From the UHGV virus genome UHGV-0104965: a stretch of 16,371 bases of DNA; one strand, 5' to 3'. Positions 1 through 9,926 of the stretch are shown in pieces (position 1 is the stretch's first letter; the number at the start of each line of letters is the position of its first letter). This stretch comes from a virus. The notes below the pieces were generated by a model. The model was given only the letters and a program-made list of their open reading frames with translations, searched no databases and had not been told where the DNA came from. Position numbers and translations under genes: made by a program.

Positions 1-15
1 TCAAATGCAGGAGAT

Positions 16-44
16 AAAAAAGGTCGCAAACCGCGACCTTTTAT
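16..44 (-). terminator. Rho-independent terminator downstream of the lipoprotein gene
   Basis: GGTCGC(22-27)-aaacc-GCGACC(33-38) hairpin; on the minus strand it is followed by a run of 6 U (complement of A-run 16-21). Sits directly after the stop of CDS 50..391. Confidence 0.6.
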
Positions 45-49
45 TAAAA

Positions 50-391
50 TTATTTTGATTTGTACTGCTGTATTAGTTTTTCTTTTTTCTCACGATAGTC
101 TTTAGCCTCTGAAATAATCTGATTAGCAGTTTTACCATTCAGAATAACTAAACGCATTTTATCGGGAGAGTAATTTTTATCACCATTAATCATGGCTTCT
201 GTATTGTAGTAACTGAGAGTATCTGAAATTGCTGTTAGCAATTCCTGTTTTTGCTCCGGGGAAAGCGGCTCAATGACCTTCTCACCTGAATAACGCAATG
301 ACTCTTGATTTGCACCATCAAATTTAGGTGCATTATCACAACCTGCCAAGAGCAACGTTAAAGCCAGACTAAATATATAAATAACTCTCAT
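50..391 (-). CDS. Putative secreted lipoprotein (moron), function unknown
   Basis: ATG at 391 with GAGGT Shine-Dalgarno about 6 nt upstream; N-terminal signal peptide with lipobox LLAGC; region 1-520 is markedly AT-rich compared with neighbouring phage genes; own terminator. No family recognised by eye. Confidence 0.8.
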   Translation of the reverse strand: MRVIYIFSLALTLLLAGCDNAPKFDGANQESLRYSGEKVIEPLSPEQKQELLTAISDTLSYYNTEAMINGDKNYSPDKMRLVILNGKTANQIISEAKDYREKKEKLIQQYKSK

Positions 392-497: not shown

Positions 498-539
498 AAC
501 CATTATCAAGCCCATCTGCAGATGAGCTTTGTAATGGTT
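498..539. repeat. 42-bp imperfect palindrome centred on CATCTGCAGATG, with adjacent hairpin GCCACT-tcccgg-AGTGGC
   Basis: Left arm AACCATTAtcaagccCATCTG, right arm CAGATGagctttgTAATGGTT (3 mismatches in 21-bp arms). Lies exactly at the AT-rich/GC-rich composition boundary, about 110 bp upstream of the lipoprotein start. No U-run, so not an intrinsic terminator. Confidence 0.5.
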
Positions 540-807
540 GCCACTTCCCGGAGTGGCCACGCTCATGCCCTTGAGTTGCTGTCGCTTCATCGCCGCTGAT
601 AACCGGTGCGCGTATGGCGTTCGTGCTGCTTTACCGGAGCATGTACCCTTATTTACCCTCACATCGGTATGCTATACCTGCTCGCCATTACGCGACTCGG
701 GGCAGCATCATGACTGCTGCATTGCCTTCCGGCTACGGTCTTACCGCTTTGCTACTTCAAAAAGGTTTACTCCTTAGTACCGTTTGTTCCCCTGCTTTGC
801 AAAAGGC

Positions 808-1323
808 TCACCGCCGCTCTTGCTCAATCTGCCGTATACCAGCCAGGTTATTGTTGCCCTTCTCAATCACGGCCAGCAGCGGCTTAATCCAGAGCACAGC
901 CTGGCAGTAAGTTATTGAGCCGGCGGCAGCGGTACTATCATCGGCTGCGTCAGGTCCGTCGGTATCGGCGTGCATTGCGCTGGAACGTAAACGGTACGCG
1001 TATTCGAGCAGCCCACCAGCAATGTCAGCAGGAACAGGCAGATCACAGGTTTTTTCACGGCGGAGAATCTCCCGGTATTCGATTACGGTTTCTTCGGTGC
1101 TGGTGTCTATCAGGGCGTTAAGCCTGTTGGCATGTTCGGCTACCTGATTGAACCTATTAAAGTTGAATGCCTGGGTAGCGATCACCTGCCCCTGCAAAGA
1201 GTTGTCACTTCGCAGAACGTCGTTATCGCTCTGTAGGCTACTGGCGTTTGAGCAACTCTTAACGAGAGCGACCGAAAGGCCAGCAATAACGACAACGCCG
1301 ATAAGACCTGCATTAATTTTCAT
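808..1323 (-). CDS. i-spanin (Rz-like inner-membrane spanin subunit)
   Basis: ORF 808..1416 trimmed to internal ATG at 1323, which overlaps the endolysin stop (ATGA). N-terminal TM helix [21 protein letters not shown] followed by charged, probably coiled-coil periplasmic domain; last gene of the lysis cassette; contains the embedded o-spanin ORF. Confidence 0.7.
   Translation of the reverse strand: MKINAGLIGVVVIAGLSVALVKSCSNASSLQSDNDVLRSDNSLQGQVIATQAFNFNRFNQVAEHANRLNALIDTSTEETVIEYREILRREKTCDLPVPADIAGGLLEYAYRLRSSAMHADTDGPDAADDSTAAAGSITYCQAVLWIKPLLAVIEKGNNNLAGIRQIEQERR
912..1058 (-). CDS. o-spanin (Rz1-like outer-membrane lipoprotein), embedded in +1 frame of the i-spanin gene
   Basis: Hand translation from GTG at 1058 to TAA at 912 gives 48 aa: MKKPVICLFLLTLLVGCSNTRTVYVPAQCTPIPTDLTQPMIVPLPPAQ. 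Lipobox LLVGC, proline-rich mature part with a second Cys, as in lambda Rz1. GGGAG SD about 10 nt upstream. Absent from the ORF track (under 60 aa). Confidence 0.7.
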   Translation of the reverse strand: MKKPVICLFLLTLLVGCSNTRTVYVPAQCTPIPTDLTQPMIVPLPPAQ

Positions 1324-1859
1324 TGGTCCAGCCCCCAGCACGCCAGCGCACTTTCTTGATCGCGCCGCTCGACCTGCCCATAGCAGCCATTCTTTTGGCC
1401 TTTGGTTAGTCGGCAATCACGGCCGCCATCTTTAATCCACCAGCGAATAGCTTCACATGCCCCTTTCCGGTCACCAGCATTGATGCGCTTATAGAACGTG
1501 GACGGGAAGCATTTACCCGGCCCGATGTTGTACGGGCAAAAAGATGCGATGCCTACCTTCTGCGGCTCTGTCAGAGGCACTTTGATATTGCGATCAACCC
1601 AGGCTAATGCCTTATCACGTTCAATAGCGTTAACCTTGCGGCATTGTTCCTCTGTGGCTGTCATGCCCTTAACAACACGCCTGCCATCGATAACGGTCAC
1701 GCCGTGACATAAAGACCAGACCCCACCCGGATCAACAACGGCCACCAGCGCATTGCCTTCTTTCTCGCTGATGAATTGGTCGAAAATGAGTGGAGCAGAT
1801 GCCCCTGACGCGATTAGCGCCAGCACTGCTGCGCTGAGCTTTGCTTTGTTCGACATCAT
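1320..1859 (-). CDS. SAR endolysin (phage lysozyme, T4-lysozyme/GH24-like, signal-anchor-release type)
   Basis: N-terminal weakly hydrophobic SAR segment [20 protein letters not shown] followed by lysozyme catalytic region [15 protein letters not shown]...; start overlaps holin stop (ATGA at 1856-1859); resembles phage 21 R21 / P1 Lyz. Confidence 0.9.
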
Positions 1860-2071
1860 TCACCTCGGGCAGCTTTGCGGCGATCCGCTTTGATTTGAAA
1901 ATAAAGGTTGGTTAGGAAGGTTAGTAAGCCAAACAGTAAACTACCGATCACACCTATAGCGGCCCACTGTTCGGGTGAGTAACCGTCAAGAAGTCTTCTG
2001 AACCAGTAAATGGCACTACCTCCCGATGCGCCGTAGGAAATGCCAGTAGTTATTTTGTCCATTCGATACAT
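1856..2071 (-). CDS. Pinholin (phage 21 S21-like class II holin) with dual-start motif
   Basis: 71 aa beginning [10 protein letters not shown]... with two TM segments, closely resembling S21 (MKSMDK...). Met1 and Met4 give the antiholin/holin dual start. GAGGTGA SD upstream of ATG at 2071. Confidence 0.9.
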
Positions 2072-2112: not shown

Positions 2113-2138
2113 AAAAAGGGCCGCGATAGCGACCCAAG
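2113..2138 (-). terminator. Candidate intrinsic terminator between methyltransferase and holin genes
   Basis: On the minus strand GGGUCGC-uauc-GCGGCCC (7-bp stem with one G-U pair) followed by UUUUU. Stem is more stable in the minus-strand RNA, matching the transcription direction. Confidence 0.5.
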
Positions 2139-2141
2139 CTT

Positions 2142-3194
2142 TTATTCCCCTGCCAGCTGCCTTACCTCACTTACCGTCTGGTTGAAACGTTCCTCTTCCA
2201 GTTCTACGCCGATAGCCTGGCGGCCCAGTTCAATGGCTGCTTTAACAGTTGATCCCGAGCCCATAAAGAAATCAGCTACCACATCGCCGGGCCTGCTGCT
2301 GGCGTTGATGATTTGCCGCAACATATCAGCGGGCTTTTCGCACGGGTGTTTGCCTGGATAGAACTGGACTGGTTTATGGGTCCATACGTCCGTATATGGC
2401 ACGGCAGCTGTCACAGAGAAATGCCGCCGAAGTGATTTGTACTCTTCGAGCAGCTCTGAATATTTGCGATTCAACGAATGCCACAGAGCCACCAGCTGGT
2501 GGTGTGGTGTTGCCAGTTCGCCGTTCTGGTGCTTTTCGATGGCTACCTGCGTGAAAAGGGACTGAAGTTTCCGGTAGTCTGATTCATTCGGTAATTGCCA
2601 CTGGCTACCGCTGAACCAGTGAGACACCATGTTCTTCTTTCCAGTCGCATCGGCTATTTGTTTTGAGGATATGCCAAGCGCTTCACGTGCATCCCGGAAA
2701 TAAGATATTAGGGGAGTCATTACATGCTGCTTCAGCTCGCTTCCCTTCTCAGCGTACCCGTCGCTCTTTGGTTTATACGGCCCCTGGTAATGCTCAGCGA
2801 ACAGGATGCGTTCTGTTGCAGGGAAGTAAGAGCGCAGGCTCTCTTTATTACAGCCATTCCAGCGGCCCGACGGTTTAGCCCAGATGATGTGGTTCAGGAT
2901 GTTGAACCGCTCACGCATCATGATCTCAATGTCTGCCGCCAGGCGGTGACCGGAGAAAAGATAAAGACTGCCAGCAGGTTTAAGCACTCGCCAGAATTGT
3001 GCGAGGCACATATCAAGCCAGCGAAGATAATCCTCATCCCCTTTCCATTGATTGTCCCAGCCGTTGGGTTTCACTTTGAAGTACGGCGGATCCGTAACAA
3101 TAAGGTCAATGGTGTTATCTGGGAGGGTTGCGAGGTATAGCAGGCAGTCAGCGTTGACAAGCTCAACACTGTTTATATTTACAGTATTTTTCAT
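2142..3194 (-). CDS. DNA methyltransferase, beta-class (N6-adenine or N4-cytosine), orphan phage enzyme
   Basis: Motif IV TDPPY near the N-terminus and SAM-binding motif I FFMGSGST near the C-terminus (beta-class order: IV then I). 350 aa, no adjacent restriction endonuclease gene. Confidence 0.9.
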   Translation of the reverse strand: MKNTVNINSVELVNADCLLYLATLPDNTIDLIVTDPPYFKVKPNGWDNQWKGDEDYLRWLDMCLAQFWRVLKPAGSLYLFSGHRLAADIEIMMRERFNILNHIIWAKPSGRWNGCNKESLRSYFPATERILFAEHYQGPYKPKSDGYAEKGSELKQHVMTPLISYFRDAREALGISSKQIADATGKKNMVSHWFSGSQWQLPNESDYRKLQSLFTQVAIEKHQNGELATPHHQLVALWHSLNRKYSELLEEYKSLRRHFSVTAAVPYTDVWTHKPVQFYPGKHPCEKPADMLRQIINASSRPGDVVADFFMGSGSTVKAAIELGRQAIGVELEEERFNQTVSEVRQLAGE

Positions 3195-7096: not shown

Positions 7097-9034
7097 TCAG
7101 GCGGCTGCACCCGCCTTTTGATTTGCACATAATTCAGGAAGATTTGCTTCTACCAGCGCACGAGCGAACGGCGGCGGTACTGCGTTACCGCAGCGCGCTA
7201 CCTGCTTGTCTTTGGCGTAACGATTGCCGCGATAGTCCTGATCGATAACGTAGCCGTCAGGGAAGCCCTGCGCCTTATAAAGCTCATGCGGTTGCAGCAT
7301 GCGCATTCCGATATCGACGATCTGGTACTTAACCCCCTCGATCGTCACCAGCCATTCATCCTCGCTATCACCGCAGTAGGTTTCGAGGAATGTCCGGACC
7401 TCGCCAACGTGCTGGCCACCAGCGGTAATCGTCGGCATAGGTGTATCCATGGTCTGACCGTCGCGGCAGGTTCCGCGCAGCTTCACCAAGTGCGACGCAA
7501 CTACCGCGTGATGATCAACAGTAGTGACAGAGTGGGCAGGCTCATCCATACCAACACCCGGCCCCGTGTAATTCCCACCATAGTGCTTTGCCAGGAACGC
7601 GCTCACCGTTGCAAACTTATTACCACCAGCAGTGACCGTGCCGAGCGGGTTATTCAGTTGAAGAACACGCGGTTCTTGCCCTAGGCGTTCGCCGTACCCC
7701 ATCTGGATCAGTGTTGGAGTTACCAGCTGCGACTTACCGCCACCACCTGCAGTAATCGTCGCGCTCGGTTCGTCAGCCCTGTGCCCAACACTAGCGCCAA
7801 ACTGGCGGGCGATGACCGGCGCAACCACGCACGCGCGGGACTGCCTGAGGATTGTATGAGCGGGTTTATCCAGCGGGCGCGGCTTTGCCTGGTACTCACT
7901 GCCGCCATTGCCAGCCAGGAACGGTGTCAGGGCGGCCTCAACTACGCCAAGCGCATGCCCATTCCCGCCCGGACGCGCCGACGTACCAGCGGTGACAGTT
8001 GGTACCGGCTCGGTCACTGGCTGCCCGGTGGCCCCGGTGCGGAATTTAGTAAGATGCGGTACCGCCAGCGCGTAGCCATGCTTTTTAGTGATGGTCTGCA
8101 ATGGCTCTAACAACGATTGCCCGCGGAAACAGTCATAACCTCCTTTCGTCGTGGTGTGGTTACACTTCACGATGAAAGGTGATGCGCTTTCGATAACAAA
8201 GCGCTGGATGCCGCGCGCGATACGTTTGAGCGTATTTTCCGCCAGCGGCTTTTTGCGGTCGAAGATGGAACGGGCCGGAATGTTCCAGTCAATGCACTCC
8301 GCCGCGGTACGCCATGGCGCCAGCTTGCCGCTTTGTACTTCCAGTGATTTTGGATCCCCATGAGTCGCTTCAGGCCAATGAATCTTGCGGCCGTCACAGC
8401 GCATGACCATGAAGAAACGCCTTCTGATCGTCGGCGCGCCGTAGTCACAAGCGCGCAGCTCACGATAATCGACCTCATAACCAAGCCCGGCGATCAGCTG
8501 TTGAGCCTGCTGGCCGTGCGGCTCAATGGCAAGAAATTCACAAACCTCAGCCAGTGCTGGGTGATTCGCCGCGATCCCCGTCGACAGCATGCCGACAAAT
8601 GCCTCGAATGTTTCACCAGCACGCTCAGGATCCGGGCGTAATTCTTCATCCAGCAGCGGGCCCCATGTCTTAAATTCTTCGACGTTCTCCAGCATCATGA
8701 CTCGGGGACGTACTGCCAGCGCCCAGCGCAGAACAATCCACGCCAGCCCGCGAATCTCTTTCTTAACTGGCTTAGCGCCCTTCGCTTTGGAAAAGTGGCG
8801 GCAGTCAGGGCTAAACCAGGCCAAGCCGACAGGTTTACCGCTGGTGGCTGCGCTTGGGTCAACGTCAAACACCGACTCGCAATAATGCAGCGTGTCAGGG
8901 TGATTCGTCTTATGCATCGCAATAGCGTTTTCGTCGTGGTTGATAGCGATATCCACGCTACGCCCGATCGCCACTTCAATGCCGGTACTCGCGCCGCCGC
9001 CACCAGCAAAGTTATCAACGATAATTTCACGCAT
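7097..9034 (-). CDS. DNA (cytosine-5)-methyltransferase with enlarged, four-module target-recognition region
   Basis: ORF 7097..9088 (GTG) trimmed to ATG at 9034 (MREIIVDNFAGGGGASTG, motif I). Motif IV region SPDCRHFS, motif VI ENV, motif VIII RRR, C-terminal motifs IX (QGFPDGY) and X (CGNAVPPP). Between VIII and IX are four degenerate repeats of P-x-x-T-[VI]-T-A-G-G ... [FT]-L. Confidence 0.9.
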   Translation of the reverse strand: MREIIVDNFAGGGGASTGIEVAIGRSVDIAINHDENAIAMHKTNHPDTLHYCESVFDVDPSAATSGKPVGLAWFSPDCRHFSKAKGAKPVKKEIRGLAWIVLRWALAVRPRVMMLENVEEFKTWGPLLDEELRPDPERAGETFEAFVGMLSTGIAANHPALAEVCEFLAIEPHGQQAQQLIAGLGYEVDYRELRACDYGAPTIRRRFFMVMRCDGRKIHWPEATHGDPKSLEVQSGKLAPWRTAAECIDWNIPARSIFDRKKPLAENTLKRIARGIQRFVIESASPFIVKCNHTTTKGGYDCFRGQSLLEPLQTITKKHGYALAVPHLTKFRTGATGQPVTEPVPTVTAGTSARPGGNGHALGVVEAALTPFLAGNGGSEYQAKPRPLDKPAHTILRQSRACVVAPVIARQFGASVGHRADEPSATITAGGGGKSQLVTPTLIQMGYGERLGQEPRVLQLNNPLGTVTAGGNKFATVSAFLAKHYGGNYTGPGVGMDEPAHSVTTVDHHAVVASHLVKLRGTCRDGQTMDTPMPTITAGGQHVGEVRTFLETYCGDSEDEWLVTIEGVKYQIVDIGMRMLQPHELYKAQGFPDGYVIDQDYRGNRYAKDKQVARCGNAVPPPFARALVEANLPELCANQKAGAAA

Positions 9035-9926
9035 TGACGGCCCCCTGCATGCTGTTGAAGAGACCACCAGCGGTCGTGATAATTTCACTCATCGGCATAC
9101 GTTCGAGCCACAGCTGGTTGATATTGGCTTTCAGCTTGTTCTGCTGTGAAACAGGTAGAGCGTCAGCCCCTTCAATCTGGTTAAACACCAGGCCAACCTC
9201 AAGAGGCCAGATGCGCGACTCTGCATCAGGCGTTGCAATGGGAGCAGGCATTACATTTTCCGGCACCGACGGAAGGGCCAATTTTGCCGCGGCGAATTGA
9301 GCCAATGACAATGCGGCACGCCCTTTTTCTTCCAGTTCGGTGCGATTGATATAGCTGAATCTTTCACCACGCCAGGTTTTGTCAAAGACAGCGATTGCCC
9401 CGGCAAAAAATGCGCTGGTGGGTTGCTGCTTCTCGTCAGCGGGAACAAACCAAACAGGAAGATCGAACCCAATACGACCACGAATAAACATGATGTGATC
9501 GGCATCCTCCGGCCACCATGTTTCACTTGTGGCTGACTTCACGAGGTATATGTAACGACCACCTTGATCACGCATCGCCATTGTGTGATTCATGATGTGG
9601 GTCATGCCAGTGATGGCCTGCTTTTCATGGTACTGAGAACGGCTATATGGCGGATTTGCAAACGCGGCGCCACCGAGTTCTGCCAGACGCTCTGACCAGT
9701 CCTGCGTCAGCGCGTTATCTTCGGCGGTATACCATGCAGGGCATTTAGCATTGCTATCGTCTGCAAACAGATCCAGAACCATCGGCCCAAATATCGAATT
9801 GATGCCCCAAAACAACAAATCCGGAGTGCGCCACTGATCGCCAACCTCTTTCAATTCATGCGCTGGCTTTGAGCGCAGTTCAGCCAGCGCGCGGCAATAT
9901 TTGTTATCAGCATTCATGCTCATCAT
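9027..9926 (-). CDS. Phage DNA N6-adenine methyltransferase (phage Dam family) with about 100-aa C-terminal extension
   Basis: WRTPDLLFWGINSIFGPMVLDLFADDSNAKC...AFANPPYS: the W-x-T-P ... D-x-x-A ... NPPY pattern of the phage Dam family. ATG overlaps stop of the O-like gene (ATGA at 9923-9926). Confidence 0.9.
   Translation of the reverse strand: MMSMNADNKYCRALAELRSKPAHELKEVGDQWRTPDLLFWGINSIFGPMVLDLFADDSNAKCPAWYTAEDNALTQDWSERLAELGGAAFANPPYSRSQYHEKQAITGMTHIMNHTMAMRDQGGRYIYLVKSATSETWWPEDADHIMFIRGRIGFDLPVWFVPADEKQQPTSAFFAGAIAVFDKTWRGERFSYINRTELEEKGRAALSLAQFAAAKLALPSVPENVMPAPIATPDAESRIWPLEVGLVFNQIEGADALPVSQQNKLKANINQLWLERMPMSEIITTAGGLFNSMQGAVNA

Follow-up and report, generated by a model that had tools for sequence, protein, structure and literature searches.

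The stretch of viral DNA that we analyzed (UHGV virus genome UHGV-0104965; 16,371 nucleotides, hereafter the window) carries a lysis cassette at its left end on the minus strand, wherein the genes are joined through ATGA overlaps. The gene for an Rz-like i-spanin follows those for a holin and a lysozyme, and a second, short ORF lies within it in another frame. The features of the locus are as follows.

1856..2071, minus strand: phage-21-type class II holin (pinholin), 71 aa; PF04971, E = 1e-31; dual-start motif M1-Y-R-M4
1320..1859, minus strand: phage lysozyme, 179 aa; PF00959, E = 4e-21; phrog_7; its stop overlaps the i-spanin ATG (ATGA)
808..1323, minus strand: i-spanin gene, 171 aa; phrog_214 'Rz-like spanin', E = 3e-58; N-terminal transmembrane segment at approximately residues 5-22
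912..1058, minus strand: probable embedded o-spanin gene, 48 codons plus a TAA stop at 912..914; +1 frame of the i-spanin gene
1069..1073, minus strand: Shine-Dalgarno-like GGGAG, 10 nt upstream of the GTG
1056..1058, minus strand: GTG start of the embedded ORF, formed by positions 2-3 of i-spanin Arg89 (CGT) and position 1 of Glu90
1011..1058, minus strand: predicted signal peptide MKKPVICLFLLTLLVG, with a KK n-region (K2K3) and a hydrophobic core; weak Pfam LPAM_1 match
1008..1019, minus strand: lipobox L14-V15-G16-C17, wherein Cys17 (1008..1010) is the predicted lipidated residue
972..974, minus strand: codon for Cys29, the single periplasmic Cys of the mature o-spanin

An initial annotation of this DNA had proposed that the embedded ORF completes a lysis cassette, and profile searches bear this out by confirming the Rz-like i-spanin, the class II holin, and the SAR-like lysozyme, whose N terminus is an Ala/Gly/Ser-rich, weakly hydrophobic segment. 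Among the profile libraries used (Pfam, NCBIfam, and PHROGs), only PHROGs recognizes the two spanins: the i-spanin matches no Pfam family above threshold, and NCBIfam yields no match for either protein. The closest protein relatives of the i-spanin are from Enterobacter genomes. Its periplasmic cysteines are Cys94 and Cys140, and the Cys codons 93/94 and 140 are invariant across the alignment of relatives described below.

The ORF listing returns MKKPVICLFLLTLLVGCSNTRTVYVPAQCTPIPTDLTQPMIVPLPPAQ (48 aa, GTG start) as the translation of 912..1058 on the minus strand, which is identical to the protein originally reported for the +1 frame. The GTG lies 265 nt past the i-spanin ATG, which places the ORF in the +1 frame, and with the i-spanin ATG at 1323 and its stop at 808..810, the ORF is nested wholly within 808..1323, as had been claimed. 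The same annotation held that the ORF track had missed this gene. Such an omission is plausible because 48 aa falls below the default 60-aa cut-off of the ORF listing and because RefSeq PGAP and most phage records leave the gene unannotated.

The embedded ORF encodes a predicted lipoprotein

The lipobox, proline-rich mature part, and second cysteine ascribed earlier to the product are all directly visible in its sequence. For the signal-peptidase-II site prediction that had been proposed as a check, we applied a PROSITE-style lipoprotein rule, by which Cys17 is the lipidated residue and cleavage is predicted between G16 and C17. The signal peptide MKKPVICLFLLTLLVG followed by C also conforms to the published lipobox consensus [LVI][ASTVI][GAS]C (PMC6139136). 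The mature part would comprise 32 residues, of which seven (22%) are Pro.

These attributes recur among the relatives that we compared. The lipobox is kept as [LS][VAT]GC in all intact loci, the n-region is kept as KK, KR, or RK, and both Cys17 and Cys29 are invariant among loci with an intact ORF. At position +2 of the mature protein, the window and all relatives alike carry Ser (CSN, CST, CSA, CSS, CSR). Under the +2 rule of the Lol pathway, an Asp at this position causes retention in the inner membrane. Judged by its Ser at +2, the window o-spanin carries no such retention signal and is of the kind predicted to be sorted to the outer membrane.

The embedded reading frame is under purifying selection

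It could be argued that the ORF stays open by chance in a GC-rich gene and has no product. The ORF listing contains several opposite-strand ORFs of equal length, and gene callers and PGAP leave the embedded ORF uncalled. When the i-spanin protein was held fixed and its codons were redrawn from the codon usage of the window (20,000 resamplings), an alternative-frame ORF of at least 48 aa arose in 53% of the resamplings, and ORF length was therefore rejected as evidence for a gene. An ORF with a lipoprotein signal arose in 3.9%, a figure that is inflated because much of the embedded frame is already determined once the i-spanin protein is held constant. Taken by itself, the window sequence gives weak evidence for an o-spanin gene.

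Comparative data argue strongly against a chance ORF. A search of a 5.8-billion-cluster protein database with the 48-aa query gave only three matches, two of which are fusion products of damaged cassettes. Because this result is uninformative on distribution, DNA loci were collected through the i-spanin instead. Relatives of the i-spanin with 46-99% identity yielded 51 genome loci from Enterobacter, Citrobacter, Kluyvera, Kosakonia, Trabulsiella, Pantoea, Brenneria, and other hosts, to which five phage or E. coli loci were added. Every locus of this combined set with an intact i-spanin retains an intact +1 ORF and its lipobox, a conservation that reaches down to the 46-52% i-spanin identity seen in Pantoea and Brenneria. 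The exceptions are three loci (L044, L052, and L056) in which the i-spanin is interrupted or matched only in part.

We then have the pattern of substitution itself. Nucleotide diversity was computed by i-spanin codon position from a codon alignment of 51 distinct sequences, with the following values.

Upstream of the overlap: position 1, 0.32; position 2, 0.23; position 3, 0.54
Inside the overlap: position 1, 0.28; position 2, 0.11; position 3, 0.14
Downstream of the overlap: position 1, 0.22; position 2, 0.12; position 3, 0.54

The drop at the i-spanin third position extends from codon 89 to the o-spanin stop (Mann-Whitney p = 1.6e-16), such that the synonymous sites of the i-spanin are frozen from the GTG to the TAA and nowhere else. 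Codon-position periodicity switches to the embedded frame inside the overlap, where variability peaks (0.28) at the first i-spanin position, equivalent to the third o-spanin position. Over the same bases, conservation is also higher for the embedded protein than for its host, with mean identities to the window of 85% for the o-spanin versus 74% for the i-spanin, the latter being 73% elsewhere in its length. Single-base variants that are silent in the o-spanin frame and change the i-spanin occur at 67 of 111 possible sites, compared to 32 of 101 for the converse class (Fisher p = 3.4e-5).

The embedded frame is thus under purifying selection that is bounded by the GTG and the TAA. The frame-bounded collapse of third-position diversity, the shifted periodicity, and the contrast between variant classes lead us to reject the chance-ORF reading, to which we assign next to no weight, because constraint at the nucleic acid level would not give three-base periodicity in a second frame together with an intact ORF and a conserved lipobox.

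The GTG start codon

The GTG start had been flagged as unusual and in need of confirmation. Its description as unusual is corrected, a GTG start not being so. The start itself is upheld: among the 54 loci in which the motif was found, the codon homologous to GTG 1058 is GTG in 48 and ATG in one (L036), and the curated SpaninDB record for coliphage mEp237 uses the same start. The ATG in L036 costs the i-spanin an Arg-to-His replacement. Constraint begins at the GTG as well. The synonymous third position of Arg89 is nearly invariant (pi 0.04), whereas the three preceding codons show values of 0.55, 0.56, and 0.51. Somewhat further upstream, third-position diversity is lowered in i-spanin codons 82-85, which hold the GGGAG, and the Shine-Dalgarno-like motif is retained as CGGGAGAT in most loci.

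It is conceivable that the gene is real and starts elsewhere, either at an internal GTG at codon 5 or at an upstream TTG or ATG. The spacing of 10 nt between the Shine-Dalgarno-like motif and GTG 1058 lies near the upper limit of what is usual, and the open frame reaches an upstream ATG or TTG in HK225 and in three other loci (L001, L025, and L027). Moreover, four Pantoea-group loci have CTG as the start-homologous codon and a TTG two codons before it, and Kosakonia oryziphila has GGG there and a TTG eight codons before it. In the window, however, an in-frame TAA (1083..1085) lies nine codons before the GTG with no ATG, GTG, or TTG between them, leaving GTG 1058 as the sole canonical start between that stop and the signal peptide. 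Initiation at codon 5 would delete the conserved K/R n-region, and the ATG in L036 falls exactly at the position of GTG 1058. Given the upstream TAA with no intervening start, the conservation among loci, and the constraint boundary at the GTG, alternative starts were rejected for the window, and we consider them very unlikely.

The embedded gene as a probable o-spanin

On this evidence, 912..1058 (minus strand) is very probably an o-spanin gene nested in the i-spanin gene, the two forming the last pair of a pinholin/SAR-lysozyme/spanin cassette in a lambdoid prophage of an Enterobacter-like host. The ORF is nested in the gene of a type II inner-membrane protein that follows the holin and lysozyme genes, as is looked for in an o-spanin. 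The product matches phrog_456 'Rz-like spanin' over residues 2-44 (E = 1.5e-6, 28.8 bits), PHROGs being a library without curated cut-offs. Embedded i-spanins and o-spanins of this kind have been catalogued, each as a family comprising those of HK225, ZF40, and mEp237 (Kongari et al. 2018, BMC Bioinformatics 19:326, PMC6139136), and by its sequence the window protein is assigned to this embedded family.

A lipoprotein with some other role, for example in superinfection exclusion (like Cor) or host fitness (like Bor), would also be compatible with the very short mature peptide (32 aa), and weak matches driven by the signal peptide were obtained to Cor (phrog_1119, E = 0.027) and to an EexN lipoprotein. 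Yet the best family match is to a spanin PHROG, the ORF listing offers no other o-spanin candidate in the cassette, and the position, the proline-rich composition, and the single conserved Cys fit the o-spanin pattern. The embedded ORF is furthermore always found within the same i-spanin family, and the two are lost together in the decayed loci L044, L052, and L056. We therefore regard a role other than that of an o-spanin as extremely improbable.

By analogy with lambda Rz/Rz1, translation, lipidation, complex formation, and a function in lysis can be proposed for the HK225-family protein. On the late polycistronic mRNA, translation would proceed from GTG 1058 with GGGAG as its Shine-Dalgarno sequence, after which the precursor would be exported, lipidated at Cys17, and cleaved by signal peptidase II. 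The lipoprotein would then be carried to the inner leaflet of the outer membrane by the Lol system, a destination suggested by the Ser at +2. There, its 32-residue proline-rich mature peptide would bind the periplasmic C-terminal part of the i-spanin, and a homodimer could form through Cys29. During lysis, the pinholin would depolarize the membrane, the SAR endolysin would degrade the murein, and the spanin complex would disrupt the outer membrane, probably through fusion of the two membranes, to complete the process.

This analogy to lambda may be imperfect, given that the i-spanin lacks a Pfam match and that its family lacks a coiled coil predicted by Pepcoil. A somewhat bolder proposal, which we consider rather unlikely, is that the HK225-family spanin works differently from lambda Rz/Rz1, as a minimal spanin with another interaction geometry. 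The proposal draws on the o-spanin, which ranks among the shortest known (32 mature residues), its predicted beta-strand TRTVYVPAQ, the i-spanin without a predicted coiled coil, and the stronger constraint on the embedded than on the host frame in the overlap (85% versus 74% identity; Fisher p = 3.4e-5). Such a constraint would fit an o-spanin frame that is the older or the dominant of the two, with the middle of the i-spanin accepting what that frame imposes, and it is in this case that the family would be a minimal spanin of different geometry.

A structured RNA element beyond the i-spanin gene

The interval between the i-spanin stop and the next gene holds a further feature, which we describe here as a separate observation.

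540..756, minus strand: 217-nt element with strong base-pair covariation
770..775, minus strand: AAGGAG of the mini-ORF signal associated with the element
752..760, minus strand: TTG-AAG-TAG of the same signal

Copies of the element with 77-90% identity lie in stretches without annotation in unrelated lambdoid phages, and it is present in 115 of 5,426 complete E. coli genomes and, by an exact-pattern scan, in at least 120 IMG/VR contigs. A covariance model was built from seven sequences, and 81 matches (73 distinct) were aligned. Standard pairs make up 94.6% of the cells of this alignment, and 22 of the 45 pairs are changed on both sides. Compensatory cells number 130, whereas shuffles give 21.8 ± 4 (none of 500 is as high) and slid controls give 15-26. 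The abundance of G-U pairs indicates transcription in the same sense as the late genes. Upstream of the element, a strong Shine-Dalgarno sequence, a start codon at a fixed position, an ORF of one to three codons, and a stop are found in 54 of 66 distinct regions, wherein the sequence of the mini-ORF is not conserved.

Three contexts were observed. In the first, the element lies just after pL and a putative boxA/boxB-like nutL sequence and ahead of a gene whose product presumably resembles P22 gp24 N. In the second, it lies just after Q and a terminator-like hairpin and ahead of the holin gene. In the third, it follows the lysis genes, as in the window. Rfam 15 gave no match to the element, either at gathering thresholds or at E <= 10, and scans of HK022 (right half, 21000-40751) and of the lambda lysis region (45100-46500) with the covariance model were negative. 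The HK022 put RNA has been described as only approximately 70 nt long with two stem-loops. The prophage sRNAs Pas and STnc100 were rejected as the identity of the element because they belong to different families, and a literature search by sequence words and topic returned no description of it. Candidate roles include a cis-acting function in antiterminated operons (Rho shielding, or mRNA stabilization or processing) or service as a processed trans-acting RNA.

Annotation of HK225-family spanins

The o-spanin of the window is already known, in that the identical protein was catalogued for coliphage mEp237 in 2018, and its absence from annotations is an ordinary gap and not a discovery. Nothing in the window copy departs from the catalogued family. 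The records of RefSeq E. coli genomes, mEp237, HK225, and Flotzy carry no annotated CDS for the o-spanin. The survey that catalogued the family lists 196 unannotated o-spanins, and its authors describe this annotation bias (PMC6139136). The SpaninDB entries for mEp237 and HK225 provide a Shine-Dalgarno sequence, a lipobox, and the note 'found it emb in Rz', and as entries they show no comparative analysis (PMC6139136). For a different embedded o-spanin, that of mEp235, a LipoP hit is recorded by the same authors. What the present analysis adds is quantitative backing for the GTG start and for dual coding, together with a broader range of hosts for the HK225 family.

The biological import is very small, as the gene completes a textbook lysis cassette. 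The practical value lies in annotation: because the gene is absent from RefSeq PGAP, from most phage records, and from the 5.8-billion-cluster database, HK225-family cassettes look spanin-incomplete unless embedded frames are checked.

Comparison with known spanin systems

The closest catalogued counterpart is the o-spanin of mEp237. SpaninDB, in which families were grouped by BLASTCLUST, gives its CDS as 42575..42718, with Shine-Dalgarno sequence tcgaataccgGGAGattctccgcc, sequence MKKPVICLFLLTLLVGCSNTRTVYVPAQCTPIPTDLTQPMIVPLPPAQ, lipobox LLVG, and the remark 'found it emb in Rz'; the same Shine-Dalgarno sequence is marked for mEp237 and HK225 (PMC6139136). These coordinates agree with the ORF that we found independently in the mEp237 locus. 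The two o-spanins are 100% identical, sharing the GTG, the GGAG Shine-Dalgarno sequence, 48 aa in total and 32 aa in the mature part, the lipobox and cleavage site (LLVG/C), and one periplasmic Cys. The 265-nt offset within a 516-nt i-spanin gene is the same, and the mEp237 i-spanin likewise has 171 aa and two periplasmic Cys residues. This i-spanin (gp59) is 100% identical to that of the window in the overlap and 93% identical outside it, with DNA identity of about 88-89% over the shared part. The mEp237 holin, however, differs from the phage-21-type pinholin of the window. The HK225 embedded o-spanin is 94% identical to that of the window.

Escherichia phage LLS (PQ299149.1, genes 55/56) shares the pairing with the pinholin. 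Its cassette has 89% DNA identity to that of the window and the same gene order of methylase, antiholin/pinholin, SAR endolysin, i-spanin, and embedded o-spanin, the lysozyme homolog being annotated as a SAR endolysin. The embedded 147-nt CDS (48 aa) is annotated as a putative o-spanin, with a 'putative function' note, and its product is 98% identical to the window protein, with D35S as the sole change. Unlike the window, which has the look of a prophage, LLS is a free E. coli K-12 phage.

The profile PF23793 ('Rz1-like lysis system protein LysC') weakly resembles the o-spanin over the lipobox and the proline-rich region (E = 0.012), at 16 bits and thus under its 27-bit gathering cut-off. A frameshift-fused 81-aa relative (P0002) carries a precomputed PF23793 match, and some related embedded or overlapped genes are named lysC by PGAP. 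P2 LysC overlaps LysB without being nested inside it (PMC6139136).

The initial annotation had equated the arrangement with that of lambda Rz/Rz1. This stands for the gene-within-a-gene organization and the +1 frame, but the pair belongs to a separately catalogued family that is distinct in sequence. In both systems, the o-spanin gene lies wholly inside the i-spanin gene in the +1 frame and encodes a proline-rich lipoprotein, and the pair comes last in the lysis cassette. Both have two periplasmic cysteines in the i-spanin and one in the o-spanin, the latter being Cys29 in each precursor. In lambda, C99 and C152 of Rz and C29 of Rz1 form intermolecular disulfides (PMC6139136). Lambda also differs from the HK225 family, wherein the i-spanin lacks a Pepcoil-predicted coiled coil and the o-spanin has a predicted beta-strand (PMC6139136).

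The mature o-spanin has 32 aa in the window versus 40 in lambda Rz1. The lambda and window i-spanins show no significant similarity (E = 0.076), and lambda Rz1 matches the window o-spanin at 32% over 38 aa (BLASTP, 18.9 bits), from the signal peptide into the first approximately 20 mature residues. Direct homology to lambda was rejected because similarity between the i-spanins is undetectable and the o-spanin match is weak. The start codon of lambda Rz1 is ATG, unlike the GTG of the window, and the Pfam matches of the window o-spanin at E <= 1 do not include the Rz1 family (PF06085). As judged by these comparisons, the window o-spanin is best placed in the functional class of lambda Rz1, and not in its sequence family.

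A covarying element near the lysis genes

A 217-nt element on the minus strand shows base-pair covariation, and two features accompany it in the sequence upstream.

Window 540..756, minus strand: covarying 217-nt element (base-pair covariation)
Window 752..760, minus strand: mini-ORF before the element (upstream sequence)
Window 770..775, minus strand: SD of this mini-ORF (upstream sequence)

The covariation is strong, with both sides changed in 22 of the 45 base pairs and with 130 compensatory cells observed, compared with 22 in shuffles. At least 120 IMG/VR contigs contain the element, as do 115 of 5,426 E. coli genomes. It takes one of three positions: behind pL/nutL, behind Q together with a terminator-like hairpin, or downstream of the lysis genes. 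Of the 66 distinct sequences upstream of it, 54 carry an SD and a start-stop mini-ORF of one to three codons at a fixed distance. The element is unannotated throughout, and a search of Rfam 15 yielded no match. The element may represent an undescribed RNA family.

The 39 nucleotides at window positions 501..539, which abut the element, are ~95% identical to DNA near the right end of phages HK022, mEpX1, mEpX2, mEp235, and HK446, and likewise of the Enterobacter phage CobraSix. Their phage counterparts are either unannotated or labelled 'hypothetical', and the stretch resembles a short, conserved boundary between modules.

The o-spanin start codon and damaged cassettes

Among the loci encoding i-spanin relatives, the codon homologous to GTG 1058, the start of the embedded o-spanin ORF, is CTG or GGG in four loci of the Pantoea group (L049, L050, L053, and L055) and in L051 from Kosakonia oryziphila. 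A TTG that could serve as the o-spanin start is located 2 or 8 codons upstream in these five loci. This sequence comparison suggests that the start codon has moved in the family's most distant members.

Of the few database 'homologues' of the o-spanin, two are fusions derived from damaged cassettes. In P0002, the N-terminus of the o-spanin is linked to the C-terminus of the i-spanin, as a frameshift would give, and P0003 joins the N-terminus of a holin to the C-terminus of the o-spanin, as a deletion would give. At three loci (L044, L052, and L056), the i-spanin match is interrupted or partial, and the o-spanin ORF is likewise truncated or absent.

Neighboring genes and comparison with known phages

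Three DNA methyltransferase genes, all on the minus strand, lie in this single prophage segment, together with a hairpin inside the expected Q-antiterminated late operon.

Window 2118..2135, minus strand: GC-rich, terminator-like hairpin with a T-run, between the methylase and holin genes
Window 2142..3194, minus strand: N6/N4 methylase, between Q and the holin gene
Window 7097..9088, minus strand: 663-aa protein with an N-terminal C5-cytosine methylase domain
Window 9027..9926, minus strand: Dam-like methyltransferase
Window 50..391, minus strand: 113-aa lipoprotein with lipobox LLAGC (DUF6694, PF20404, E = 1.5e-10)

A hairpin with a T-run lies after the lipoprotein gene, near 10..45. Because the gene is placed where lambda has bor, it may be a moron.

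The lysozyme (1320..1859, minus strand) contains the motif E-x8-D-x5-S at residues about 34-49, as does that of the E. coli locus L001, whereas the lysozymes of phages mEp237 and Flotzy carry E-x8-D-x5-T. This motif is the putative catalytic triad of phage-21-type SAR endolysins.
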